From: Nitrospira japonica
GTDB lineage: Bacteria; Nitrospirota; Thermodesulfovibrionia; Thermodesulfovibrionales; SM23-35
Direction: 5' to 3'
Assembly: GCA_020725385.1 (NCBI GenBank)
Contig: DYFC01000034.1
Span: 8,339 to 72,338 of the forward strand
DNA: 64,000 bases
Part shown: positions 32,466-45,487 of the stretch, piece after piece
How the letters are laid out: each line of letters starts with the position of its first letter
Position numbering within the stretch: the stretch's first letter is position 1
Notes under the pieces: generated by a model
The model's input: the letters and a program-made list of their open reading frames with translations, nothing else
The model's database searches: none
What the model was told of the DNA's origin: nothing
Made by a program: the position numbers and the translations under genes

Positions 32466-33893
32466 TTAAGTTATTAATTTTCTCGTGTCCCAGAATTTCC
32501 ATTTTAGGTAGTCATTAATGCCTTTAGCTGCTTTTCTGCCTGCACCCATCGCAAGAATTACTGTTGCAGCGCCTGTAACAATATCACCTCCTGCAAATAT
32601 GCCGGGTTTTGAAGTCATTCCTGTTTCATGGTCAGCGATTATATAATTTTTCTTGTTAAGAGCAAGATCTGGTATTGTGCTGGTTAGCAATGTATTCGAC
32701 CTTGTTCCTATAGCAGGTATTGCAACATCTATATCAAGCTTAAACTCGCTTCCTTTTATTGGTACAGGTTTCCTCCTTCCAGAAGCATCAGGCTCGCCAA
32801 GTTCCATTTTTATACATTCAACAGCACAAACATTTCCTTTGCCATCATCAATGAATTTTAATGGAGCAGTGAGAAACATGAATTCAATTCCTTCTTCTTT
32901 TGCGTGATGTATTTCTGCTTTCCTTGCAGGCATTTCTTCTTCAGAGCGACGGTAAATGAGATATACTTTTTCCGAGCCAAGCCTTAAAGCAACTCTTGCA
33001 GCATCCATTGCAACATTGCCGCCTCCAAATACAGCTACATTTTTTCCTTTTTTAATAGGTGTATCATATTCGGGAAAAAGATAAGCTTTCATAAGATTTG
33101 CTCTTGTAAGAAATTCATTCGCAGAATAAATTCCATTTAAGTTTTCACCCGGAATTCCAAGAAAAACAGGCAGTCCCGCGCCTGCCCCAATATAACATGC
33201 ATCATAACCCTGTTTATTCATGAGGTCATCTATAGTAAAAAGTTTCCCTATTACCGAATTAAGTCTTATCTCAACTCCGAGCTTTTTTATATATTCAACT
33301 TCTTTTTCAACTATAACCTTTGGCAATCTGAATTCCGGTATCCCGTAAATAAGGACTCCCCCGGGTTTGTGGAGTGCTTCAAACAATGTAACCCGATGTC
33401 CTTCTTTTATAAGATCTGCTGCGCATGAAAGTCCTCCGGGTCCGGAGCCGATTACAGCAACTTTTCTTCCTGTTGATTTAGGTTTTTCCGGTATTTGTAT
33501 TTCACCGCTTTCACGTTCAAAATCAGCGACAAATCTTTCAAGATTACCAATTGCAACTGGCTCTCCTTTTTTTCCAAGAATACATCTTGATTCGCACTGT
33601 ATTTCTTGAGGACAAACTCTTCCACATACAGCAGGCATTGCATTTTCTTCTTTTATTTTCCATGCTGCTTCTATAAATTTTCCTTGTTTAATTAATTTAA
33701 TAAATGCAGGTATATCAATCGATACAGGGCATCCTTCCCTGCATGTAGGTTTTGCACAATTTAAACAACGGGAAGCTTCTTCAACAGCTTCTTTAGGAGA
33801 ATAACCAAAAGGCACTTCATCAAAATTTCTTGCTCTTATTATAGGGTCCTGTTCTCTCATCCTGATTCTGCTTTTTTGTTTCTTTTCTTCCAT
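32466..33893 (-). CDS. nfnB: NADH-dependent reduced ferredoxin:NADP+ oxidoreductase large subunit (GltD/SudA-like)
   Basis: N-terminal Fe-S Cys motifs (CLNCAKPTCREGCP, CGRVCPQEIQCESRC) and two Rossmann GxGxxG motifs (VIGSGPGGL, VFGGGNVAMD). Translationally coupled to the NfnA-like gene. Confidence 0.85.
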   Translation of the reverse strand: MEEKKQKSRIRMREQDPIIRARNFDEVPFGYSPKEAVEEASRCLNCAKPTCREGCPVSIDIPAFIKLIKQGKFIEAAWKIKEENAMPAVCGRVCPQEIQCESRCILGKKGEPVAIGNLERFVADFERESGEIQIPEKPKSTGRKVAVIGSGPGGLSCAADLIKEGHRVTLFEALHKPGGVLIYGIPEFRLPKVIVEKEVEYIKKLGVEIRLNSVIGKLFTIDDLMNKQGYDACYIGAGAGLPVFLGIPGENLNGIYSANEFLTRANLMKAYLFPEYDTPIKKGKNVAVFGGGNVAMDAARVALRLGSEKVYLIYRRSEEEMPARKAEIHHAKEEGIEFMFLTAPLKFIDDGKGNVCAVECIKMELGEPDASGRRKPVPIKGSEFKLDIDVAIPAIGTRSNTLLTSTIPDLALNKKNYIIADHETGMTSKPGIFAGGDIVTGAATVILAMGAGRKAAKGINDYLKWKFWDTRKLIT

Positions 33894-34723
33894 TATTTCA
33901 CCCCTGCTTTATAGTGTTCCATGGCAATTTTTTCTTCATCAATATACATTCTTTGCCTTGACATTAAGAGATTGAAATCAACCTTATGTCCATCGAATTC
34001 AGGTCCATCAACACATGCAAATTTTGTTTCACCGCCGACTTCAACCCTGCATGCTCCACACATTCCTGTTGCATCAACCATTATGGAATTCAGACTGACA
34101 ATAGTTTTAACATTATGTTTTTGAGTAGTAATGCATACAAATTTCATCATTATCGCAGGTCCAATTGCATAAACGAGTTTTACACTTTTATCTTCATGCA
34201 AAATTTCATCAACAGGCACGGTAACAACAGCTTTTCTTCCGTAAGAACCATCATCGGTTACAACTATCAATTCATCCGATACACTTCTCATTTTGTCTTC
34301 CCAGAAAATGAGTTCTTTCATTCTTGCTCCAATTATAGATATTACAGTATTGCCTGCTTCTTTTAATGCACGTGCAATAGGATAAACAGGTGCGATTCCA
34401 ACACCGCCTCCAACACAAATAACTTTGCCAAAATTTTCAATATGCGAAGGAATTCCGAGAGGACCTATAACATCTGTAATATAGTCACCTTCGTTTAATG
34501 TAGAAAGCTCATGGGTAGTTTTACCGATTTTTTGGAAAACAGTTGTAATAGTTCCTTTTTCTCTGTCAAAGTCTGCTATTGTAAGGGGAATTCTTTCTCC
34601 TTTTTCATGAATGCGAAGCACAAAAAAATTGCCTGCCTTTGCTTTTTGTGCTATTTCTTTTGCATCAATTACAAATAGAACTACAGCATCAGACAAGATC
34701 TGTTTTTCGAGGATTTTGAACAT
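33893..34723 (-). CDS. nfnA: NADH-dependent reduced ferredoxin:NADP+ oxidoreductase small subunit (SudB/PyrK-like)
   Basis: MFKILEKQ...GERIPLTIADFD...VGGGVGIAP...GMCGACRV...FACVDGPEFDGHKVDF: FAD/NAD-binding fold plus C-terminal 2Fe-2S Cys cluster. Confidence 0.85.
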   Translation of the reverse strand: MFKILEKQILSDAVVLFVIDAKEIAQKAKAGNFFVLRIHEKGERIPLTIADFDREKGTITTVFQKIGKTTHELSTLNEGDYITDVIGPLGIPSHIENFGKVICVGGGVGIAPVYPIARALKEAGNTVISIIGARMKELIFWEDKMRSVSDELIVVTDDGSYGRKAVVTVPVDEILHEDKSVKLVYAIGPAIMMKFVCITTQKHNVKTIVSLNSIMVDATGMCGACRVEVGGETKFACVDGPEFDGHKVDFNLLMSRQRMYIDEEKIAMEHYKAGVK

Positions 34724-35023: not shown

Positions 35024-35395
35024 ATGCCTGGAACGTATTTGCCAACAGAATATTTACCGGTTTTGATTTTTATACTCGTTGCAGAGGCGTTTGGTTTTGG
35101 CGCACTGTTAATAGGAGTAGTATTCAGACCTAAAAAGCCTTACCTTGAAAAATTACTGCCTTATGAATCAGGTATTGATCCCAAAGGAGAACCTCGCACA
35201 AGATTTGCAATTCGTTTTTATATAATAGCAATGCTTTTTGTGGTTTTTGATGTTGAAGCAATTTTTATTTATCCATGGGCAATTGTATTTGATAAGATCG
35301 GCATATTTGCATTTATTGAAATGGTTATCTTTATTCTGATACTTTTAGTCGGATACATCTATGCCTGGAAAAAAGAAGCTTTTGTCTGGGATTAA
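35024..35395 (+). CDS. nuoA: NADH-quinone oxidoreductase subunit A
   Basis: Three TM segments. YESGIDP and FDVE(A)IFIYPWA motifs. Confidence 0.9.
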   Translation: MPGTYLPTEYLPVLIFILVAEAFGFGALLIGVVFRPKKPYLEKLLPYESGIDPKGEPRTRFAIRFYIIAMLFVVFDVEAIFIYPWAIVFDKIGIFAFIEMVIFILILLVGYIYAWKKEAFVWD

Positions 35396-35420
35396 AATAC
35401 CTAACAGGGGGTTATTGTAG

Positions 35421-35939
35421 ATGCTGGATACATCGAGTTTAGGCCTGATTCAAGTGCAGCAGGATGTTAAGATACTGCCTCCAAATGCTATTATTACGAC
35501 TTTTGACAAAATTATTAACTGGGGCAGGCTTTCATCTATATGGCCTATGACATTCGGACTTGCTTGATGTGCTATTGAGATGATGGCCGTGGGCGCATCA
35601 CATTATGATTTTGACAGGTTCGGTGTTATTTTTAGAGCTTCACCCCGACAGGCAGATTGCATTATAATCGCAGGCACAGTTACTAAGAAAATGGCTCCAA
35701 TTGTAAGAAGAGTTTATGATCAAATGCCTGAGCCGAGATATGTTATCTCTGTTGGAAGTTGTGCATGCACCGGAGGGATTTTCAAAACATACAGCACAGT
35801 ACAGGGTTGCGATACTTTCCTGCCGGTTGATGTTTTTATCCCTGGTTGCCCTCCAAGACCCGAGACATTTCTTGAAGGTGTAATGTTGCTTCAGGAAAAA
35901 ATAAGAAAAGAACAGGCGAGGTGGAGTCCATGGCGGTAA
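35421..35939 (+). CDS. nuoB: NADH-quinone oxidoreductase subunit B with an in-frame UGA (35565-35567) at the first Cys of the conserved CCxxE motif; candidate selenoprotein (alternatively an error or pseudogene)
   Basis: ATG at 35421 is in frame with the track ORF at 35580. Translation ...[39 protein letters not shown]...SPRQAD...GSCACTGG...IPGCPPRPE matches the full-length NuoB/Nqo6 pattern. Confidence 0.75.
35576..35605 (+). promoter_or_regulatory. candidate SECIS-like hairpin downstream of the nuoB UGA (weak)
   Basis: UGAUG-GCC-[GUG]-GGC-G-CAUCA, with an additional 3-bp lower stem. Apical loop lies about 22 nt after the UGA. The region also encodes a highly conserved peptide, so the pairing could be coincidental. 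Confidence 0.3.
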
Positions 35940-36511
35940 CCGAAGTTGTAGCAGGTTTGTATCCTGCCGGAATAGAGCAGGAAAAAATAGCTGAAATGAT
36001 AAAAGAAAAATTTCCCGAGCAGGTAATTGATGTTACCAATTTCAGGGATCAGGTTGCTGTTATTATAAAGAAAAATCAGAGTTTTTCAATCCTTAAATAT
36101 CTCCATGATGAACCAACTCTTAGTTTTGACCATCTTAGAGATCTAACTGCTGTTGACTGGTCTAATAAAAAAGAAGTAAGATTTGAAGTCGTTTATAATC
36201 TTTTATCAACAAAATACCGTCATATACTAAGAATAAAAGTACAGGTTCCGGAAAATGACGTGAAAATTGCTTCGGTTGTGCCGATATGGGCAGGAGCAAA
36301 TTGGCATGAACGTGAATGTTTTGATATGTTCGGAATTCAATTTACAGGTCATCCCGATTTAAGAAGAATTTTAATGCCAGAGGACTGGGAAGGTTATCCA
36401 TTGAGAAAAGATTATCCTTTAAAAGGATATGAAGGAGATAAAGACTGGCCTGGATTTATTCAAGTTATTAAAAGATCTCAAGAACTGAAGGAGTTTGAGT
36501 GGCATGATTAA
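35921..36511 (+). CDS. nuoC: NADH-quinone oxidoreductase subunit C
   Basis: [32 protein letters not shown] motifs. The start could instead be the ATG at 35930. Confidence 0.9.
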
Positions 36512-37973
36512 GATGCAGGAGCCTGAAAAGATTTTTGAGACGAGAGAACTGAATGTTAATATGGGGCCACAGCATCCGGCTACCCATGGGGTATTAAGAG
36601 TTGTATTGGACCTTGATGGTGAAACTATTGTCAGACTTACTCCATACGTTGGTTATCTGCATCGTGGTATAGAAAAGCTCGGTGAAAGTCTGAGTTATTT
36701 TCAGGCATTGCCTTTAACAGACAGGATGGACTATGTCTCAGCAATGTCCAATAATATAGGTTATTGCGTAGCTGTTGAAAAACTTTATGGAATAGAACCT
36801 CCGCCAAGAGCAAAATTCATAAGAACAATTGTTGGAGAGTTGTCAAGAATTTCAAATCATCTCTTATGGCTTGCAACACACGCTCTTGACATCGGCGCAA
36901 TGACAGTCTTTCTTTATTGTTTCAGGGAAAGAGAATGGATACTTGAATTATTTGAGATGATATGCGGTGCAAGACTTACCGTTACATATCCAAGAGTTGG
37001 TGGAGTAAGAAACGATATATCCAAAGAATTTATAGATCATCTCGTAAAATTCCTTGCAGAATTTCCTTCAAGAATACTTGAATATGAAACATTAATTGAT
37101 CAGAATAGAATCTGGCTTCAAAGGACTGTAGGTATTGGTGTTATCTCTGCTGAAGAAGCCATTAACTGGGGAATGACAGGACCTACATTAAGAGGTTCTG
37201 GAATTCCGTATGATATTAGAAAATTTATGCCTTATGATGCCTATGATCAGGTTGAATTTGAAATTCCTATAGGTACCGCAGGCGATACATATGATAGATA
37301 CCGTTGCAGAATGCTTGAAATGAGGCAGTCTGTAAAAATAATCATACAATGTCTCGAGAAACTTCCTGCCGGTCCTGTAATGGCTGATGCTCCAAAGTTT
37401 GTACTTCCTCCAAAAGACAAAATGTTAATAATCACACATCCTGTAAATGAAATTGCATATTTCATAGATGAAAAAGCATGTAAAGGATGTGGAATGTGTT
37501 TAAGAGCATGTCCTGCAAAAGCAATAACAGGTGAGAAAAAGAAACCGCATAAAATTGATCAGGCTTTATGTCTGCAATGTGCCACCTGTTTTGTTACATG
37601 TAAGTTCAAGGCTTTAAAAATAGTTCCGGGAGGAAAAGGACAGACAGAGGAGAAACTTGTAGAGCTTGCAGCGCAGCCTGTTTCGGATGAACTAAAACAG
37701 GCTCAAGAAGCACTCGTTGCTCATTTTGATTTCATAAAGAAAGGACCCAAGGTTCCTGAAGGTGAAGTATATGTAGCAACAGAAGTCCCGAAAGGAGAGC
37801 TTGGATTCTATTTTGTCAGTGATGGTACGCATAAACCATATAGAATGCGTGTTAGGTCGCCATCCTTTATTCATGCAGGATGTCTTGAAAGACTCTGTAA
37901 AGGGCATTTGGTTGCGGATGTTATAGCTAATATTGGAACGATTGATATCGTTCTTGGAGAGTGTGACAGGTAG
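36495..37973 (+). CDS. nuoD: NADH-quinone oxidoreductase subunit D carrying an internal 2x[4Fe-4S] ferredoxin-like domain insertion of about 94 aa
   Basis: NuoD motifs ([48 protein letters not shown]). At 492 aa it exceeds the usual length of about 400. The insert at aa 311-404 has [12 protein letters not shown] and [11 protein letters not shown]. Confidence 0.9.
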
Positions 37974-37976
37974 AAT

Positions 37977-39035
37977 ATGAATATGGCAAATGTAATAAGT
38001 CCTACAACTGTTGATGCTTTAATTAAATTTGGCATTGATGTAGCTATTATTCTTCTTAAAATAGTAATAGTTCTTGCGGTTGGCTTACTTCATGTAGCAT
38101 ATGCAACATATTTCGAACGTAAAGTAATAGGTCATATGCAGGTAAGACTTGGACCAATGAGGGTTGGACCTCACGGTCTTCTTCAGCCTTTTGCTGATGG
38201 TATAAAACTTTTCTTTAAAGAAGACATAATCCCTGCTCAGGCTGATAAAGTAGTCTTTTATATTGCTCCTATTATTTTTATGGCTGCTGCAATGGTTAAT
38301 TTGTCCGTAATTCCATTTGATGCAAATTTTGTAATTGCTGATATTAATGTTGGATTGCTTTTCATCTTTGCGATGGCTGGAGTTGGTGTTTATGGAATAT
38401 TTATATCAGGATGGGCATCAAATTCAAAATATGCATTCATGGGAGGACTTAGATCATCTGCACAGGTTATAAGTTATGAAATTGCGATGGGTCTCAGCCT
38501 TGTTGGTGTTATGATGATGGCGGGTTCTTTAAATCTCTCGGATATAATCAGGGCACAAGGTGAATCAATATTTGGCATGTACGCTATCCCCCAGTTTATA
38601 GGATTTATAGTATTTGTAATTGCTGCAGTTGCAGAAACAAACAGAACACCGTTTGATTTGCCCGAAGCCGAAAGCGAATTAGTAGCAGGTTATTTTACAG
38701 AATATAGTAGTTTCAGATTTGCTCTATTCTTTCTTGGCGAATATATAGCAATGATTCTTATGGCGTCATTATGCACAATATGTTTCCTCGGTGGATGGAC
38801 ATTGCCATGGTATGTTTTGAAAATTTTCCCGTTCCTTAGTTATGTGCCGGGAGTTGTATGGTTTGTGTTGAAAGTTTATGCATTTTTCTTCTTCTATTAC
38901 TGGATAAGAGCAACAGTACCAAGATACAGATACGACCAGTTTATGGCTATAGGCTGGAAGATTTTAATTCCGGTTGCGATAGGAAATATATTATTAACAG
39001 GTCTTGTGAAAATTATTTTGAAAGAGGTATTGTAG
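37977..39035 (+). CDS. nuoH: NADH-quinone oxidoreductase subunit H
   Basis: ERKVIGHMQVRLGPMRVGP..GLLQPFADGIKL, ETNRTPFDLPEAESELVAGY motifs. Confidence 0.9.
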   Translation: MNMANVISPTTVDALIKFGIDVAIILLKIVIVLAVGLLHVAYATYFERKVIGHMQVRLGPMRVGPHGLLQPFADGIKLFFKEDIIPAQADKVVFYIAPIIFMAAAMVNLSVIPFDANFVIADINVGLLFIFAMAGVGVYGIFISGWASNSKYAFMGGLRSSAQVISYEIAMGLSLVGVMMMAGSLNLSDIIRAQGESIFGMYAIPQFIGFIVFVIAAVAETNRTPFDLPEAESELVAGYFTEYSSFRFALFFLGEYIAMILMASLCTICFLGGWTLPWYVLKIFPFLSYVPGVVWFVLKVYAFFFFYYWIRATVPRYRYDQFMAIGWKILIPVAIGNILLTGLVKIILKEVL

Positions 39036-39036
39036 C

Positions 39037-39561
39037 GTGACATTCAAACATTTCATTAAAACAATTACCTTTATAGAAATATTGAAAGGTATGGCTTTAA
39101 CATTAAGAAGGATGTTTTCTAAGGCAGTTACAATACAATATCCCGATGAAAGAAGAAAGATTGCGCCTGGTTTTAGAGGGCAACATGCTCTTTCAAAACG
39201 TGGCGGGAAAGCAAAATGTGTTGGTTGCGGATTATGCGCTACAATATGCCCTTCGCAATGTATAAGCATAACGAGAGAAAAAGGTCAGGTTACAAAATAT
39301 CAAATAGAGCTTCTAAGATGTATATATTGTGGATTTTGTGTTGAAGCTTGCCCGTATGGAGCTATCTCTCTAACTGAGAATTATGAATATTCTTCTTACA
39401 ACAAACAGGATTTAATGATGACAAAGGAAAAATTATTATCAAACTGGGATAAATATATGCCCGGTACAAAAGGCGAAGAATATTACAAAAAATTCTGGAG
39501 GCCTATGTCAGAGGATTTCGGTACACCTCCCGGACAGGCAATGTATGGAGGTAAAAGATAA
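39037..39561 (+). CDS. nuoI: NADH-quinone oxidoreductase subunit I (2x[4Fe-4S])
   Basis: CVGCGLCATICP and CIYCGFCVEACP motifs. GTG start. Confidence 0.9.
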   Translation: MTFKHFIKTITFIEILKGMALTLRRMFSKAVTIQYPDERRKIAPGFRGQHALSKRGGKAKCVGCGLCATICPSQCISITREKGQVTKYQIELLRCIYCGFCVEACPYGAISLTENYEYSSYNKQDLMMTKEKLLSNWDKYMPGTKGEEYYKKFWRPMSEDFGTPPGQAMYGGKR

Positions 39562-40073
39562 TGGTATCCATAGGCTTTTTTATATATTTTGCTTTTGCAA
39601 TTGTAGTTCTTTCATTGCTTGTAGTAACAAGAAGGAATCCTGTTCACAGTGTTTTATGGATGCTTCTTTTGTTTTTCCATATAGCAGGAGTATATTTGTT
39701 CCTTAACGCTGAATTTATGGCTGCAATACAGGTCATTGTATATGCAGGAGGTATCCTTGTTTTATTCTTATTTGTTGTTCTTTTAATGAACTTACGAGAA
39801 GAGTTATCAATAGGTAAATACACCACATTTGGCCCGACAGGTTTTACTTTCGCTTTAGGACTTTTTGTAGCTGTTTCTATGGCACTGAGTTCTTTTATAG
39901 CTGCGCCTCCCGGCAAATATTCAATAGATTTAATCAAGCAGGAGACACATGTAAAAGCACTCGGTAAATTGTTATATACAGAGTTTATTTATCCTTTTGA
40001 AATTGCTTCTTTGATTCTTTTAGTTGCAATGATTGGAGCAATAGTCCTTGCGAAAAGGAGGCTTAAGAGTTAA
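39561..40073 (+). CDS. nuoJ: NADH-quinone oxidoreductase subunit J
   Basis: Five TM segments, NPVHSVLWML and QVIVYAGGILVLFLFVV motifs. Confidence 0.85.
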   Translation: MVSIGFFIYFAFAIVVLSLLVVTRRNPVHSVLWMLLLFFHIAGVYLFLNAEFMAAIQVIVYAGGILVLFLFVVLLMNLREELSIGKYTTFGPTGFTFALGLFVAVSMALSSFIAAPPGKYSIDLIKQETHVKALGKLLYTEFIYPFEIASLILLVAMIGAIVLAKRRLKS

Positions 40074-40074
40074 G

Positions 40075-40380
40075 ATGGCGGTTCCATTAAGCTGGTACAT
40101 GTTATTGAGTCTTGCTGTATTTTCAATCGGTGTGTTTGGTTTTCTTTCAAGAAGAAACATTATTATTATGTTAATGTCTATAGAATTAATGTTAAACGGA
40201 GTAAATATTAATTTAATCGCTCTCAGTCATTATATTCAGGATTTAAGGGGCCAGATACTTGCGTTTTTTGTGATAGCGGTTGCAGCAGCCGAGGCGGCGA
40301 TTGGACTTGCGATTGTGATTGCGATGTTCAGGAACAGGGCAACTGCGCATGTTGATGAAATCAAAGAGATGCAGGGTTGA
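40075..40380 (+). CDS. nuoK: NADH-quinone oxidoreductase subunit K
   Basis: ATG at 40075 is preceded by an AAAAGGAGG RBS (the track ORF begins upstream at 40048). SIELMLNGVN and AAAEAAIGLAI motifs. Confidence 0.85.
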   Translation: MAVPLSWYMLLSLAVFSIGVFGFLSRRNIIIMLMSIELMLNGVNINLIALSHYIQDLRGQILAFFVIAVAAAEAAIGLAIVIAMFRNRATAHVDEIKEMQG

Positions 40381-40409
40381 TTAACAAATGAGTATAGAGG
40401 AATAAGAAT

Positions 40410-42494
40410 ATGGCAAATATGGAATTACAATGGTATCATGTTTTAATACCTTTTCTTCCGCTAACCGGTTTTATAATTAATATTCTACTTGGCAAAGAAG
40501 TAACCAGATATAAAGCTCACTGGTTTGCTGTTTCTTCTGTTTTTGGTTCATGGCTATGTTCGCTCGCTACATTACAGGATGTTCTTGGAGGCAAGATAAT
40601 CGATGCCGATCTTTATACATGGATACTTTCAGGCACATTTAAGGTAGGGGTGGGATTTTTAATTGATCCTTTAACTGCAGTTATGCTCATTGTTGTTACA
40701 ACCTGTGCAACTTTGATTCATATTTATGCAATAGGTTATATGCATGGTGACACAGGTTATTACAGATTTTTCTCATATCTGAATCTTTTCACATTCTGTA
40801 TGCTTATGCTTGTAATGGGCAATAACTTCCTCCAGCTTTATTTCGGATGGGAAGGTGTAGGACTTTGCTCTTATTTCTTGATTGGATATTATTTCAATAA
40901 AAAATCTGCTGCAGATGCTGGAAAGAAAGCCTTCATAGTCAATAGATTCGGCGACTTTGGTTTTGGAATCGGTGTTTTTATGGTCTTTTTAACATTTGGA
41001 ACTTTACACTATGCTGATGTTTTTGCGAATGTTAGCAGTATTGCCGGTAAAACAGTCAATTTTCTTGGTTTAAATGTTGACCTTCCAACATTGATTGCAC
41101 TATTACTTTTTTGCGGTGCGGTTGGAAAATCAGCCCAGATTCCATTACATGTCTGGCTTCCAGATGCAATGGAAGGTCCCACACCTGTCAGCGCATTAAT
41201 CCATGCTGCCACAATGGTTACAGCGGGTGTATTTCTCGTTGCAAGATGCAATCCTATTTTCAACCTTTCTGAAATTGCAATGAATACAGTCGCAATTATC
41301 GGGGCGTTGACAATGTTCTTTGCAGCAACAATCGCTATAACGCAAAATGATATAAAAAGAATTATAGCTTTTTCTACATGTAGTCACTTAGGTTATATGT
41401 TTCTTGCCTGTGGAGTTGGAGCTTATGCAGCAGGAATATTCCATCTTTACACCCATGCATTTTTCAAAGCACTTCTATTTCTTGCAGCAGGTAGTGTAAT
41501 TCATGCAGTTCATACAAATAATATTCAGTTTATGGGTGGATTGAAAAAATATATGCCTATTACATACGCGGTTTTCGTTATTGCTGGGTTAAGTGCCGGC
41601 GGATTTCCCGGTCTTTCCGGATTCTTCAGCAAGGATGAGATTATATGGTCTGCATATGCTTCCCATTCAAGCGTAGGTAAATTTGTATGGATACTCGCAC
41701 TTGCCGGAGCATTCTTTACACCTTTCTATACATTTAGATTAATATTCAGGACTTTCTTCGGAGAATATCGTGGTGGACTCGAGGCAGAAGAAGCAGCGAC
41801 TCATGCACATAGCAGTTCACATGGTTCGGGGCATAGTTCACATGGTGCCGGTCATGATTCTCACGGTTCAGGACACGACCCGCACGGACATGATTCATCT
41901 CATGGTTCCGGACATGATTCACACGGAGGACATGGACATGGTCCCCATGAATCACCTTATATTATGACAGTGCCCTTGATGTTTCTTGCTGTTGGAGCAA
42001 TAGCTGCCGGCTGGGTTGGCATTCCGCCTTTACTCGGGGGAGGAAATCATTTTGCTCATTTCTTACAGCCTGTTGTAGGCCACCCGGAATTTCATGGCAC
42101 TCATGCTGAAGAATGGGGTGTAATGATATTATCAACCACAATTGCACTAATTGGCCTGGGACTTGCAGCATTTATGTATTTAAGAAAAACCGATTTACCC
42201 GAGAGAATTTCAAAACAATTCTCATTGTTATATAAAATTTTATATAACAAATATTATGTGGATGAATTTTATAATCTTACTATTGTGCAGCCGACTCTTA
42301 AACTTGCAAATAAAGTGCTTGTAGGATTTACAGATGCCAAGATAATTGAAGGTATAGTTAATGGTGTGCCTAACTTAATAGGAATATTCAGCCAGAAACT
42401 TAGAAGGCTTCAAACAGGAATAGCGCATCATTATGCAATATTTATGGCAGCAGGTGCAGTTTTTATAGTTGCACTGGTAATTTTATTGAGTTAA
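40410..42494 (+). CDS. nuoL: NADH-quinone oxidoreductase subunit L with His-rich insert
   Basis: Antiporter-like subunit motifs (GWEGVGLCSY, KSAQIPLHVWLPDAMEGPTPVSALIHAATMV). 16 His occur within 49 aa at nt 41802-41948. Confidence 0.9.
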   Translation: MANMELQWYHVLIPFLPLTGFIINILLGKEVTRYKAHWFAVSSVFGSWLCSLATLQDVLGGKIIDADLYTWILSGTFKVGVGFLIDPLTAVMLIVVTTCATLIHIYAIGYMHGDTGYYRFFSYLNLFTFCMLMLVMGNNFLQLYFGWEGVGLCSYFLIGYYFNKKSAADAGKKAFIVNRFGDFGFGIGVFMVFLTFGTLHYADVFANVSSIAGKTVNFLGLNVDLPTLIALLLFCGAVGKSAQIPLHVWLPDAMEGPTPVSALIHAATMVTAGVFLVARCNPIFNLSEIAMNTVAIIGALTMFFAATIAITQNDIKRIIAFSTCSHLGYMFLACGVGAYAAGIFHLYTHAFFKALLFLAAGSVIHAVHTNNIQFMGGLKKYMPITYAVFVIAGLSAGGFPGLSGFFSKDEIIWSAYASHSSVGKFVWILALAGAFFTPFYTFRLIFRTFFGEYRGGLEAEEAATHAHSSSHGSGHSSHGAGHDSHGSGHDPHGHDSSHGSGHDSHGGHGHGPHESPYIMTVPLMFLAVGAIAAGWVGIPPLLGGGNHFAHFLQPVVGHPEFHGTHAEEWGVMILSTTIALIGLGLAAFMYLRKTDLPERISKQFSLLYKILYNKYYVDEFYNLTIVQPTLKLANKVLVGFTDAKIIEGIVNGVPNLIGIFSQKLRRLQTGIAHHYAIFMAAGAVFIVALVILLS

Positions 42495-42521
42495 AAAGGA
42501 TAAAACTCTTAGAGGAGAACA

Positions 42522-44063
42522 ATGGAACAGGTAATAATGAATAATCTGAATTACCCCATACTTAGCACCGTTATATTTCTACCAGTTTTGGGCGCGCTTC
42601 TAATTCTCATTAACAGAAGATCATGGGAGACCCTGACAAAATGGATAGCATTGGGAACGAGCATTTTAACTTTTATAGCTTCAATTCCTTTATTTACTCA
42701 TTTTGACAAGACCACCCATAAGATGCAATTTGTAGAGAGATTTTCATGGATTCCCAACTGGAATATTTATTATTTTCTCGGAGTTGATGGCATAAGCGTT
42801 CTATTTGTTCTTCTTTCGACACTATGCGCTATTCTTTGTGTATTAATATCATGGACAGCAGTTACTAATAAAATTAAAGAGTTTTATATAGCTATTTTAT
42901 TAACAACATCTTTTATGATCGGTGTCTTCTGCTCCCTGGATTTTTTCCTTTTTTATCTTTTCTGGGAAGCGATGCTTATACCTATGTTCCTGATCATCGG
43001 TGTCTGGGGCGGACCAAATCGTATATATGCTGCAATTAAGTTCTTCCTTTATACATTAGTAGGAAGTGTCCTGATGCTTGTTGGAATAATCGTTCTTTAT
43101 CTTTATTCAGGTAAAACATTTGATATTCTTACAATGATGACAAAGAATTATCCTTATACAATGCAAATATGGCTTTTCTGGGCATTTTTTGCAGCTTTTG
43201 CTGTTAAGGTGCCAATGTGGCCAGTGCATACATGGTTGCCCGATGCACATACCGAAGCTCCAACAGCAGGTTCGGTTATTCTTGCTGCTGTCCTTATTAA
43301 AATGGGTGCTTATGGTTTCCTGAGATTTTCATTGCCCCTGCTTCCCGAAGCATCAAAAGCAATGACACCTGTTATGTTAACGTTATCAGTTATTGCAATT
43401 ATTTATGGAGCTATCATATGTTTAGGCCAGACAGACCTGAAAAGACTTATTGCATACAGTTCGGTAAGTCACATGGGATTTGTAACACTCGGTATTTTTG
43501 CACTAAATACACAGGGAGTTGAAGGCGGAATACTACAAATGCTCAATCATGGTGTAGTAACAGGAGCTCTCTTTTTATCTGTAGGTATTGTTTATGAAAG
43601 AACACATACAAGATTAATTGCTGATTATGGTGGTCTTGCTACCGAGATGCCAATATATTCATCATTTTTTATGGTGTTTACCTTAGCAGCAATTGGGCTT
43701 CCTGCAACAAATGGTTTTATAGGTGAATTCCTGATCCTTTTGGGTGGATTCGCTGCAAATAAATGGGCTGGAGTCCTTGCTTGCACTGGAATAATCATAG
43801 GTGCAGGTTATATGCTCTGGCTATATCAAAGAGTATTTTTTATGGAAGTAAATCCCAAGCTTCATGGACTGGTTGATATGAATGTAAGGGAAACTATAGC
43901 ATTATTGCCCATGTTAATACTCGTATTCTGGATAGGTGTTTATCCTAATTCATTCCTTAGCTTTATGCATACTTCTGTGCAACATCTTTTAGAGAGAGTT
44001 AATAGTGGCGGGATTGCCCAGGAAGCACAGATAGCTAAAAATATTATGGAGGTAATCAGATGA
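42522..44063 (+). CDS. nuoM: NADH-quinone oxidoreductase subunit M
   Basis: FWEAMLIPMF, VKVPMWPVHTWLPDAHTEAPTAGSVILA motifs. Confidence 0.9.
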   Translation: MEQVIMNNLNYPILSTVIFLPVLGALLILINRRSWETLTKWIALGTSILTFIASIPLFTHFDKTTHKMQFVERFSWIPNWNIYYFLGVDGISVLFVLLSTLCAILCVLISWTAVTNKIKEFYIAILLTTSFMIGVFCSLDFFLFYLFWEAMLIPMFLIIGVWGGPNRIYAAIKFFLYTLVGSVLMLVGIIVLYLYSGKTFDILTMMTKNYPYTMQIWLFWAFFAAFAVKVPMWPVHTWLPDAHTEAPTAGSVILAAVLIKMGAYGFLRFSLPLLPEASKAMTPVMLTLSVIAIIYGAIICLGQTDLKRLIAYSSVSHMGFVTLGIFALNTQGVEGGILQMLNHGVVTGALFLSVGIVYERTHTRLIADYGGLATEMPIYSSFFMVFTLAAIGLPATNGFIGEFLILLGGFAANKWAGVLACTGIIIGAGYMLWLYQRVFFMEVNPKLHGLVDMNVRETIALLPMLILVFWIGVYPNSFLSFMHTSVQHLLERVNSGGIAQEAQIAKNIMEVIR

Positions 44064-45487
44064 ATTTCCCCCTTCCTGATCTTAATCCTGTAATGCCTGA
44101 AATACTGATGACTGCATTTGCATTAATTGTGCTTTTACTTGATTTGATTGTGAAAAAGAAAGAAGCTGTAGCTGTAATTAGCATTGCAGGCACAGCAATA
44201 GTATCACTAAGTCTTCTAAATACATCAGGCTCTACATTCGGGGGAATGTATATAGCTGACGGATATAGCACATTCTTTAAAATCATATTCTTTATAAATG
44301 TCATATTAACGATATTGATTTCAATTAAATATATTGCTGTAGAAAGAGTTAATTATGGTGAATATTATAGTTTAATACTTTTTTCGACAGTTGGTATGAT
44401 GATAATGGCCTCAGCTTCTGACCTGATAACGCTTTACTTAGGTCTTGAATTAATGGCATTAAGCACTTATGTATTAGCCGGATTTATAAGACATAATCTT
44501 AAATCGACTGAATCTGCACTTAAATATTTTCTTCTGGGAGCTTTTTCATCAGGATTCTTGCTCTATGGTATTTCTATTGTATATGGACTTACAGGTACAA
44601 CGGATATAAAGGCAATAGCAACATTCATAACAGAAAGAGGATTAAGCGGAAATTTATCGCTTCTTCTTGCGATTGGAATGCTTACTGTTGCGTTTGGATT
44701 TAAGATTGCTGCGGCTCCATTTCATATGTGGGCTCCCGATGTATATGAAGGAGCTCCAACTTCAATAACAGCATTCATGTCAGTTGGCCCAAAAGCAGCT
44801 GGTTTTGCTGTTATTGGAAGAGTTTTTATGATAGCTTTTGCAGCTGTAAAAGCAGACTGGGCAACTATCTTGATCCCGATATCAATTCTTACAATGGCAG
44901 TTGGTAACATTGTAGCATTATCACAGACGAACATAAAGAGAATGCTCGCATATTCTTCTATAGCCCATGCTGGATATGCATTGCTTGGTATAATTACAGC
45001 CAACTCAGAGGGTATATCAAGCATGATGAATTATCTCTTTATCTATGCTTTCATGAATATCGGAGCATTTGCAGTTATCATAATGCTTAGAAGCGAAGGC
45101 ATAAAAGGTGAAGATTTAAGCGACTATGAAGGGCTTTCAAAAACACATCCTATGGCAGCGGCTTTAATGCTGATTTTTATGTTTTCATTGACCGGAATCC
45201 CACCAACAGCAGGTTTTATTGGTAAATTATATATTTTCATGGCTGCAATTAATGCAGGATATACATGGCTTGTTATTATAGCTGTCATATTTAGCGCTAT
45301 TTCAGCATACTTTTATTTACGAGTTGTAATGTATATGTATATGAGGGATCCAAAAACTGAACTACCTTTAACTACATCCTTTACAAATGGATTAGCCCTT
45401 GCAGTTACAACAGCAGCAGTATTGATCATAGGTGTTTTCCCGACAATGCTTGTGGAATTTGCCCGTGCTGCATTGAAGAGTTTTTAG
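44060..45487 (+). CDS. nuoN: NADH-quinone oxidoreductase subunit N
   Basis: LGLELMALSTY, KIAAAPFHMWAPDVYEGAPT motifs. Four-nt overlap with nuoM. Confidence 0.9.
   Translation: MNFPLPDLNPVMPEILMTAFALIVLLLDLIVKKKEAVAVISIAGTAIVSLSLLNTSGSTFGGMYIADGYSTFFKIIFFINVILTILISIKYIAVERVNYGEYYSLILFSTVGMMIMASASDLITLYLGLELMALSTYVLAGFIRHNLKSTESALKYFLLGAFSSGFLLYGISIVYGLTGTTDIKAIATFITERGLSGNLSLLLAIGMLTVAFGFKIAAAPFHMWAPDVYEGAPTSITAFMSVGPKAAGFAVIGRVFMIAFAAVKADWATILIPISILTMAVGNIVALSQTNIKRMLAYSSIAHAGYALLGIITANSEGISSMMNYLFIYAFMNIGAFAVIIMLRSEGIKGEDLSDYEGLSKTHPMAAALMLIFMFSLTGIPPTAGFIGKLYIFMAAINAGYTWLVIIAVIFSAISAYFYLRVVMYMYMRDPKTELPLTTSFTNGLALAVTTAAVLIIGVFPTMLVEFARAALKSF

Follow-up and report, generated by a model that had tools for sequence, protein, structure and literature searches.

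Where do electrons enter a complex I that is encoded without its NADH-oxidizing N-module? The question is raised by a nuo operon in the stretch of DNA analyzed here, 64,000 nucleotides of the Nitrospira japonica assembly GCA_020725385.1 (contig DYFC01000034.1, positions 8,339 to 72,338 of the forward strand), referred to below as the window. The electron donor of such 11-subunit complexes, which are widespread in anaerobes, has been an acknowledged open question ever since their operons were first recognized, and it still is in a 2024 study (PMC11238625). In the window, nuoA, B, C, D, H, I, J, K, L, M, and N are contiguous on the + strand (35024-45487), and the lack of nuoE, nuoF, and nuoG stated in an initial annotation, made from the sequence alone, was confirmed, none of the three being found between nuoD and nuoH or elsewhere in the 64 kb. 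We observed that nuoD of this operon encodes a protein with a nested domain predicted to bind two [4Fe-4S] clusters, and we propose, with a probability of roughly 60%, that this insert is a built-in electron entry or exit module feeding cluster N6a.

The elements in question, in window coordinates and with residues numbered on the NuoD product in amino acids (aa), are the following.

36495..37973, + strand: nuoD, open reading frame (ORF) of 492 aa, subunit D of complex I, within which an Fe-S domain is nested
37425..37682, + strand: inserted domain, aa 311-396, made of an N junction with THP and the 2x[4Fe-4S] core (aa ~322-380), followed by a turn (PGGKG) and a short helix of acidic character (EEKLVELA)
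37479..37514, + strand: first cluster motif, C329-x2-C332-x2-C335-x3-C339-P340, read directly from the sequence
37569..37601, + strand: second cluster motif, C359-x2-C362-x2-C365-x3-C369, also a direct reading

The inserted domain of NuoD

The NuoD of the window is a genuine complex I subunit D. It matches the NCBIfam model TIGR01962 with 554.7 bits, against a cutoff of 459.35, and the match is split in two, aa 18-311 corresponding to profile positions 2-295 and the second part to the C terminus; the match to the Pfam family Complex1_49kDa (PF00346; E value of 2.2e-115) is likewise in two parts around aa 311-~398. In the alignment to solved 49-kDa chains, both the histidine (GPQHPATHG) and the tyrosine (DRMDYVS) of the quinone site are kept, the former belonging to the beta1-beta2 loop and the latter lying beside cluster N2 (PMC6992706). 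The database copy of the protein, located on a 152-kb NCBI contig, is 100% identical, with the start annotated at Met4 (489 aa).

The alignments to the solved 49-kDa/Nqo4 chains end at query aa 307-310 and restart at aa 394-399, with zero residues of the target chains skipped in between. It follows that the insert comprises about aa 311-396, i.e., ~86 residues (nucleotides 37425-37682), nested between PPKDKM and the downstream helix of NuoD. The initial annotation had placed it at aa 311-404, with an acidic linker as its last part; the start stands, and the end has to be moved back to ~396, the first half of the presumed linker (SDELKQAQ) being the beginning of the canonical helix (RAEMKTSM in the ovine chain).

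Within aa 322-385 of the insert, several Fer4 families score above their gathering scores, namely, Fer4_6 (38.5, gathering score of 25), Fer4 (36.9 and 21.1), Fer4_7 (29.7 and 27), and Fer4_2 (28.6 and 24.5), and the best named NCBIfam match is RnfB (E value of 1e-11). Together with the split TIGR01962 and PF00346 matches, this hidden Markov model scan recovers the nested dicluster architecture that the initial annotation had described for the 492-aa NuoD, as well as the two CxxCxxCxxxC(P) motifs, which do occur at dicluster spacing. The eight cysteines span 41 residues, and both their spacing and the Cys-Pro pair are invariant in 102/102 long NuoDs, a pattern from which binding of two [4Fe-4S] clusters by the insert is predicted. 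Furthermore, an AlphaFold2 (AF2) model of aa 299-423 (mean predicted local distance difference test [pLDDT] of 83.4) predicts a (beta-alpha-beta)x2 fold, and the core of the model superposes on solved dicluster domains with a root mean square deviation (rmsd) of 1.1-1.5 A. An AF2 model of the full-length NuoD, built from a 41-sequence alignment with all members >=73% identical, was set aside as too poor for geometry or fold search (mean pLDDT of 56.6 and predicted template modeling score of 0.51). The net charge of the core is +5 to +8, and both junctions are conserved, with THP at aa 314-316 and PGGKG at aa 378-382, which argues for a fixed rather than a floppy domain.

In a scan of one genome per species (GTDB species representatives), 38 loci were found to encode the whole insert segment; 37 of them are labeled Thermodesulfovibrionales, Thermodesulfovibrionia, Nitrospirae, Nitrospirota, Nitrospiraceae, or Nitrospira, and the remaining one (L006) is labeled Nitrospinota. 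A full-length search retrieved ~70 clusters (at 90% identity) of 486-505 aa, sharing 77-100% identity with the NuoD of the window, and the named database copies carry only the designation "NADH-quinone oxidoreductase subunit D." When the insert with its flanks was used as the query, fragments from independent metagenomes were obtained in which every cysteine is kept. In a phmmer search over 1.84 billion cluster representatives, one of them (P0079) matches the whole 163-residue query (E value of 1.7e-77), the remaining matches among the best 150 being polyferredoxins, ferredoxin domains, and plain NuoD C termini; thus, among these 150 matches, the insert-bearing NuoD is a single family confined to one clade. 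The candidates for a convergent architecture (P0185, P0203, P0288, P0197, P0171, and P0182), of similar length and with a Fer4 domain near aa 330-390, were rejected, none of them having a NuoD domain; they are polyferredoxins or RnfB-like proteins. Two different insert-bearing nuo operons (L007 and L036) were assigned to the same metagenome-assembled genome (MAG), MFD09779.bin.2.135, and may be paralogous operons or the outcome of a mixed bin.

The nested insert is real, and not an artefact of assembly. An assembly chimera, a frameshift, an intein, or a mobile insertion could be invoked on account of the unusual length and of the fragmented state of some relatives, and we assign to such explanations a negligible probability: the stop-to-stop ORF is intact, at 491-500 aa, in 32 of the 38 loci, which come from genomes of many studies and assemblers, and the other loci are either truncated at the end of a contig or frameshifted, the latter on error-prone contigs where the neighboring nuo genes are broken too. 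The ~70 clusters, the unremarkable base composition across the insert, and the recovery of the whole segment as one family in the exhaustive search speak against an artefact as well. As for an intein, already dismissed in the initial annotation, the N junction (LIITHP) offers no Cys, Ser, or Thr splice residue, the end of the insert (AAQPV, followed by SDE) is without His-Asn, and the whole segment is explained by the Fe-S domain. The ratio of nonsynonymous to synonymous substitution rates (dN/dS) is ~0.08 for the Fer4 core (59 codons) and 0.13 for the NuoD C terminus, both values being rough, with dS near saturation; a value of 0.36 for an N-terminal control was discarded, that block not being gap free across the loci.

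Changes in NuoD and NuoI that accompany the insert

The core gene order nuoA-B-C-D-H-I-J-K-L-M-N is shared by the window and all the related loci, with nuoD between nuoC and the next core gene, and some of these loci encode a NuoD without the insert. The closest insert-less NuoDs (P0115-P0130) are 396-398 aa long and present an ancestral-type junction, PPKDYIL followed by KDMEHLIHQF.LITK. Outside the insert they share 93-94.5% identity with particular insert-bearing NuoDs, versus 89-91% with other insert-less groups, and the median identity among insert-bearing NuoDs is 88.7%. The insert-less operons are of two kinds, 11-subunit EFG-less operons (L083, L085, and L087) and 14-subunit operons with nuoEFG between nuoD and nuoH (L088 and L089), and in every insert-bearing locus that reaches beyond nuoD the gene directly 3' of it is nuoH. 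The co-occurrence of a long NuoD with a missing N-module, a point raised by the initial annotation, therefore holds in one direction: every insert-bearing operon, essentially in Nitrospirota, is EFG-less, whereas insert-less relatives can be EFG-less as well. In other words, the insert is confined to EFG-less operons, and EFG-less operons work without it.

The junction and the helix that follows it sort strictly by insert state, and insert-bearing genes have, without exception, the derived type of post-insert helix, which argues for a single origin of the insert. Given a single origin, the intermixing of the two forms in the rest of NuoD suggests, from pairwise sequence identities, recombination or cassette exchange between insert-bearing and insert-less NuoDs. 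These identities were preferred to a neighbor-joining tree of the shared NuoD regions, which had no bootstrap and was misrooted on the frameshifted L039. In one of the 14-subunit relatives (L089, 7200-7664), a gene with a cyclic nucleotide (cNMP)-binding domain lies between nuoD and nuoE.

The other subunits of the operon were compared between three insert-less and ~38 insert-bearing operons (NuoA, B, C, H, I, J, K, L, and M, plus NuoN in L085 only). NuoI alone groups by insert state, with 82.6-86.7% identity among insert-less operons, whereas the best match in an insert-bearing operon reaches 73.6-78.5%. With all the other subunits, an insert-bearing operon can be found that matches at least as closely (within 1 point) as the other insert-less operons do, and this includes NuoH, which is encoded between nuoD and nuoI and is independent of insert state. 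The elements concerned are located as follows.

39037..39561, + strand: nuoI (clusters N6a/N6b), the sole other subunit tracking the NuoD insert by sequence
39253..39318, + strand: hairpin of NuoI (aa 73-94, SQCISITREKGQVTKYQIELLR), which connects the two cluster motifs, the same hairpin as that of NdhI K86/K89/K91
37683..37757, + strand: post-insert helix and basic loop of NuoD, aa 397-421, with the insert-specific K415 and K419, aligning with the NdhH K315 and K321 segment

In the NuoI of the window, both cluster motifs are intact. In insert-bearing operons, the tip of the hairpin between them is deleted (CISITREKGQ------VTKYQIELLRC, versus CIHIYTAEGEEGGKKIVERYEIEVLRC in insert-less ones), so that the hairpin lacks 5-6 residues relative to the insert-less relatives and the solved TYKY/NdhI chains; compared to the solved mitochondrial TYKY chains, the hairpin of the window is 5 residues shorter. 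Moreover, position 80 of NuoI (T80R) is R in 30/30 insert-bearing versus 0/5 insert-less sequences, and positions 53 and 59 provide further discriminating columns. In NuoD, the discriminating columns outside the insert all flank it (309-310, 399-404, 409, 412, K415, and K419). In particular, K415 is K/R in 101/101 insert-bearing versus T in 15/15 insert-less proteins, and K419 is K/R in 100/101 insert-bearing proteins versus I/V/A/T in insert-less ones.

These positions can be mapped onto cyanobacterial NDH-1, in which the cluster of a bound soluble ferredoxin lies 9.6 A from N6a (PMC6992706). In the cryo-electron microscopy structure of NDH-1L-Fd, the ferredoxin contacts are K86, K89, and K91 of NdhI and K315 and K321 of NdhH (PMC7021789). 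The PDB sequences indicate that ...IGKK315LSPTFK321IPKGE... of the Thermosynechococcus (T.) elongatus NdhH aligns with ...FIKKGPK419VPEGE... of the window, that the insertion falls at NdhH ~296-302, a helix ahead of K315/K321, and that the hairpin connecting the two cluster motifs of NdhI bears K86-K91 at its tip. The NuoD of the window has the basic residues K415, K416, and K419, specific to insert-bearing forms, but the tip of the NuoI hairpin is deleted and not lysine rich. Judging from these alignments, the ferredoxin-contact elements of NDH-1 in NuoI and NuoD are exactly those remodeled when the insert is present. The mapping onto NDH-1 and the co-variation are two independent lines that lead to the same location, and by sequence and analogy the insert probably occupies the place used for ferredoxin docking in the photosynthetic enzyme, above N6a. 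In 14-subunit enzymes, the surface of this pocket is covered by NuoG. As to NdhS, V, O, M, N, L, and the other NDH-1-specific subunits, none is encoded in or beside the operon, no search of the window aimed at them having been made; to our knowledge, the NDH-1 subunits specific to oxygenic photosynthesis are not expected outside cyanobacteria and plastids.

Origin and proposed role of the domain

The nearest relatives of the insert outside NuoD are found at the C termini (final 55-80 residues) of ~620-aa proteins from Nitrospirota, with BLASTP identities of 51-70% that reach into the flanks (the compared segment of the insert ends CKFKSIKILPAG); homologues in other phyla share lower identity, 45-59%. 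The ~620-aa proteins consist of a thioredoxin-like [2Fe-2S] domain, a NuoF flavin mononucleotide (FMN) domain, NADH_4Fe-4S, and a Fer4 dicluster, an architecture of the HydB/BfuB type, and in the insert-less L085 a 622-aa gene of this type lies a few kilobases upstream of the nuo operon. Furthermore, the top Foldseek matches of the insert model in the PDB are the C-terminal domains of the B subunits of NfnABC, HydABC, StnABC, and Bfu-AOR (rmsd of 1.1-1.5 A over 56-59 aligned columns, 39-53% identity), and the best single-domain matches by sequence are the C-terminal domains of RnfB, HoxF, and HydB. In NiFe-HydABCSL, the C-terminal domain of HydB was proposed as the ferredoxin-binding site, and it aligns with NdhI (PMC8880783). 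Judged by homology and predicted fold, the insert goes back to the capture of a C-terminal ferredoxin domain from a NuoF-like (HydB/BfuB) subunit of an electron-bifurcating enzyme from the same phylum. The homology is limited to that domain: the NuoD of the window has no PF01512 or PF10589 match and is not itself a BfuB.

With HydB, NfnB, and StnB, the B subunits of the Bfu family, and with the C-terminal domain of RnfB, the insert thus shares the fold and the motif ACPxKAIxGEKKKPHxIxQxxCxxCxxCxxxCKFK, the identity being 39-53% to the solved HydB/NfnB/StnB chains and up to 70% to the Nitrospirota homologues. In those proteins the domain is the terminal, ferredoxin-facing dicluster, and it occurs as the C-terminal extension of a soluble NuoF-like flavoprotein (or in RnfB), whereas here it is nested in the hydrogenase-large-subunit-like NuoD of a membrane complex. 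The cyanobacterial and chloroplast NDH-1 resembles the enzyme of the window in having the same 11 core subunits without NuoEFG. Its electrons enter at N6a of the NuoI homologue, through a pocket built from the hairpin of that subunit and the C-terminal part of the NuoD homologue, the lysines of the latter having counterparts in the NuoD of the window. However, NDH-1 works with a soluble [2Fe-2S] ferredoxin and has extra subunits (NdhS, V, O, and others), a long lysine-rich NdhI hairpin, and no Fe-S domain in NdhH, while here a predicted 2x[4Fe-4S] domain is covalently part of NuoD and the tip of the NuoI hairpin is deleted.

Other 11-subunit enzymes (for example, that of Desulfitobacterium, and likewise those of the insert-less L083, L085, and L087) have the same nuoABCDHIJKLMN set without an N-module, their donor being presumed to be ferredoxin or a docking enzyme; they differ in the canonical ~400-aa NuoD and, in the close relatives, in the full-length NuoI hairpin. 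In the canonical 14-subunit complex I, extra Fe-S clusters upstream of N6a are provided by protein placed on the NuoD/NuoI apex, NuoG being the connector to N6a. The close relatives L088 and L089 are of this form, in which separate subunits (NuoE, F, and G) supply the clusters and NADH is the donor, through FMN; here, the two predicted clusters are in NuoD, and a flavin site is absent. The initial annotation did not recognize a ferredoxin domain within NuoD as a described architecture, nor did we find a description of it, or anything relevant on the complex I of Thermodesulfovibrionia, in the open-access PMC literature or bioRxiv; the architecture is apparently undescribed, its sequences being public but generically named.

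It is possible to hypothesize that the insert sits in the pocket that the NuoI hairpin builds together with the C-terminal part of NuoD, where it would extend the Fe-S wire by two clusters, electrons passing from a donor to insert cluster 2, then to insert cluster 1, N6a, N6b, N2, and finally quinone. The strongly basic outer face would be the docking surface for an acidic low-potential donor, either a ferredoxin or a ferredoxin-reducing enzyme; the core charge and the retention of the GEKKKPH and CKFK motifs of the BfuB C-terminal domains make this exposed face a plausible docking surface. The acidic C-linker may pack on the newly basic NuoD/NuoI pocket. The sequences establish the nested domain and its conservation, its homology to the BfuB C-terminal domains, the EFG-less operons, and the specific co-variation with NuoI and the adjacent NuoD residues; the binding of clusters, an electron-transfer distance to N6a, any direction of the flow, and the nature of the donor are inferred from them. 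The suggestion of the initial annotation that the ferredoxin domain might be an entry or relay point toward the NuoI and NuoB clusters gains indirect support, by sequence and analogy, from the HydB/BfuB homology, the NdhH site, and the co-variation with NuoI.

Several observations weigh against a built-in module feeding N6a. A helix of 19 residues separates the C junction from K415/K419, and it follows that the proximity to the pocket rests on co-variation and not on distance; for the co-variation test itself, no more than five NuoI sequences from insert-less operons were available, representing three lineages. The insert is basic, as are the residues of the pocket, and packing may involve the acidic C-linker. 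Equally close insert-less EFG-less relatives (L083, L085, and L087) indicate that the insert is not required for an 11-subunit enzyme. Finally, all the sources are uncultured MAGs, and the case is built on sequences and models.

The same module might work in reverse, as an exit port through which the proton-motive force drives electrons from menaquinol to the insert, reducing ferredoxin for CO2 fixation or other low-potential reactions. Complex I is reversible, the C-terminal domain of the parent BfuB/HydB has been proposed as a site of ferredoxin reduction, and neighboring genes encode ferredoxin- and NAD(P)H-linked enzymes (an NfnAB-like pair and, in L003, L014, and L019, a Bfu-like cluster); even so, sequence fixes no direction, NDH-1, the closest ferredoxin-dependent system compared, runs from ferredoxin to quinone, and we consider the reverse flow somewhat unlikely. 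The insert might instead be a docking or assembly adaptor for a partner enzyme, such as the NfnAB-like pair or a soluble NuoEFG-like/Bfu module, replacing the contact surface of NuoG, with structural or secondary clusters. This would suit the proposal of the 11-subunit enzyme as a docking platform for several donors (PMC11238625), the NfnAB-like pair divergent beside nuoA in most insert-bearing loci, and the NuoE-like, NuoF-GltD fusion, and NuoG-like cluster upstream of nuoA in L003, L014, and L019. The adjacency of NfnAB, however, is also found in the insert-less L085, L086, and L088 and is missing from several insert-bearing loci, and the absolute conservation of the eight cysteines argues that the clusters themselves matter, which makes an adaptor unlikely. 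A redox-sensing or regulatory domain, or a tolerated passenger, outside the main electron path is very improbable: the existence of close relatives without the insert and the cassette-like intermixing of the shared NuoD parts would agree with it, but the core is under purifying selection no weaker than that acting on the NuoD C terminus, both junctions are conserved, and specific compensatory changes are found in NuoI and in the flanking NuoD residues.

Returning to the electron module, we give even odds to a fuller scenario in which complex I would have evolved a new covalent electron-input module, the ferredoxin-binding end of a soluble bifurcating enzyme having been captured into NuoD at the ferredoxin/NuoG pocket and NuoI having then been remodeled. 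The result would be a self-contained ferredoxin:menaquinone oxidoreductase, or the reverse, with a five-cluster wire and, in part of the clade, a selenocysteine ligand of N2. The headless complex I itself carries a candidate entry port with an identifiable evolutionary origin, and the existence of a sister form that lacks the port, 93-94% identical over the remainder of NuoD, makes the question of electron entry directly testable. The locus also offers a clean case of domain capture into a surface loop with compensatory remodeling of the neighboring subunit, and in the fuller scenario insert-bearing and insert-less operons would represent a natural experiment on the loss and replacement of N-modules. 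The annotation as "subunit D" overlooks two extra predicted Fe-S clusters.

Selenocysteine candidate in NuoB and other features of the operon

The remaining features of the operon and the adjacent gene pair are the following.

35024..35395, + strand: nuoA
35421..35939, + strand: nuoB, the subunit of cluster N2; the codon for the first Cys in its tandem CC motif is an in-frame TGA (35565-35567)
35921..36511, + strand: nuoC
37977..39035, + strand: nuoH, directly 3' of nuoD, without intervening nuoEFG
39561..45487, + strand: nuoJ, K, L, M, and N (membrane arm)
32466..34723, - strand: NfnB-like and NfnA-like pair, divergent from nuoA; context only, possible partner

The in-frame TGA of nuoB falls in FGLA[U/C]CAIEMM, whose tandem Cys motif we take to ligate cluster N2. 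The same TGA occurs in 12 related insert-bearing loci (L008, L009, L015, L018, L021, L023, L028, L030, L036, L037, L039, and L040) and in the 14-subunit L089, and all the other related loci examined have TGC or TGT. In the 13 TGA-bearing genes, the four-fold sites of the downstream GCC, GGC, GCA, and TCA codons are invariant and the neighboring codons vary, an invariance seen only in the TGA group, in which a 9-bp stem including the UGA is also conserved (UGAUGYGCC/GGCGCAUCA). No Rfam family of selenocysteine insertion sequence (SECIS) elements was found at nuoB, either at gathering scores or at a permissive E value, and no tRNA-Sec was found in the 64-kb window. In a 2026 review on the selenoproteins of prokaryotes, the main text contains no "Nuo," "complex I," or PF01058, and nothing relevant to selenocysteine in NuoB was found in the open-access PMC literature or bioRxiv. 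The sequence pattern is the classic Sec/Cys signature, and NuoB is likely a selenoprotein, with selenocysteine at a Cys position of the N2 cluster.

In the divergent pair, the NfnB-like protein (475 aa) contains Fer4_20 and Pyr_redox_2 and the NfnA-like protein (276 aa) contains DHODB_Fe-S_bind. In L003 (1-7600), L014, and L019, the opposite strand encodes a NuoE-like protein of 173 aa, a 1062-aa ORF matching NuoF and NfnB/GltD-like proteins, and a NuoG-like protein of 860 aa, followed by the NfnAB-like pair, and this upstream cluster resembles a Bfu-type soluble enzyme.

The C-terminal motif of NuoD is GECDR, with C490 (37962-37964) invariant in both insert-bearing and insert-less members of the clade, where the aligned solved chains have GEVDR. 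In NuoL, aa 464-514 (41799-41951) form a low-complexity segment of 51 residues rich in His, Gly, Ser, and Asp, with 16 His (THAHSSSHGSGHSSHGAGHDSHGSGHDPHGHDSSHGSGHDSHGGHGHGPHE), which is possibly a metal-binding loop. In many relatives the NuoL match is broken in two, the gap preceding the final ~180 residues, and a variable stretch may thus lie near the His-rich segment.

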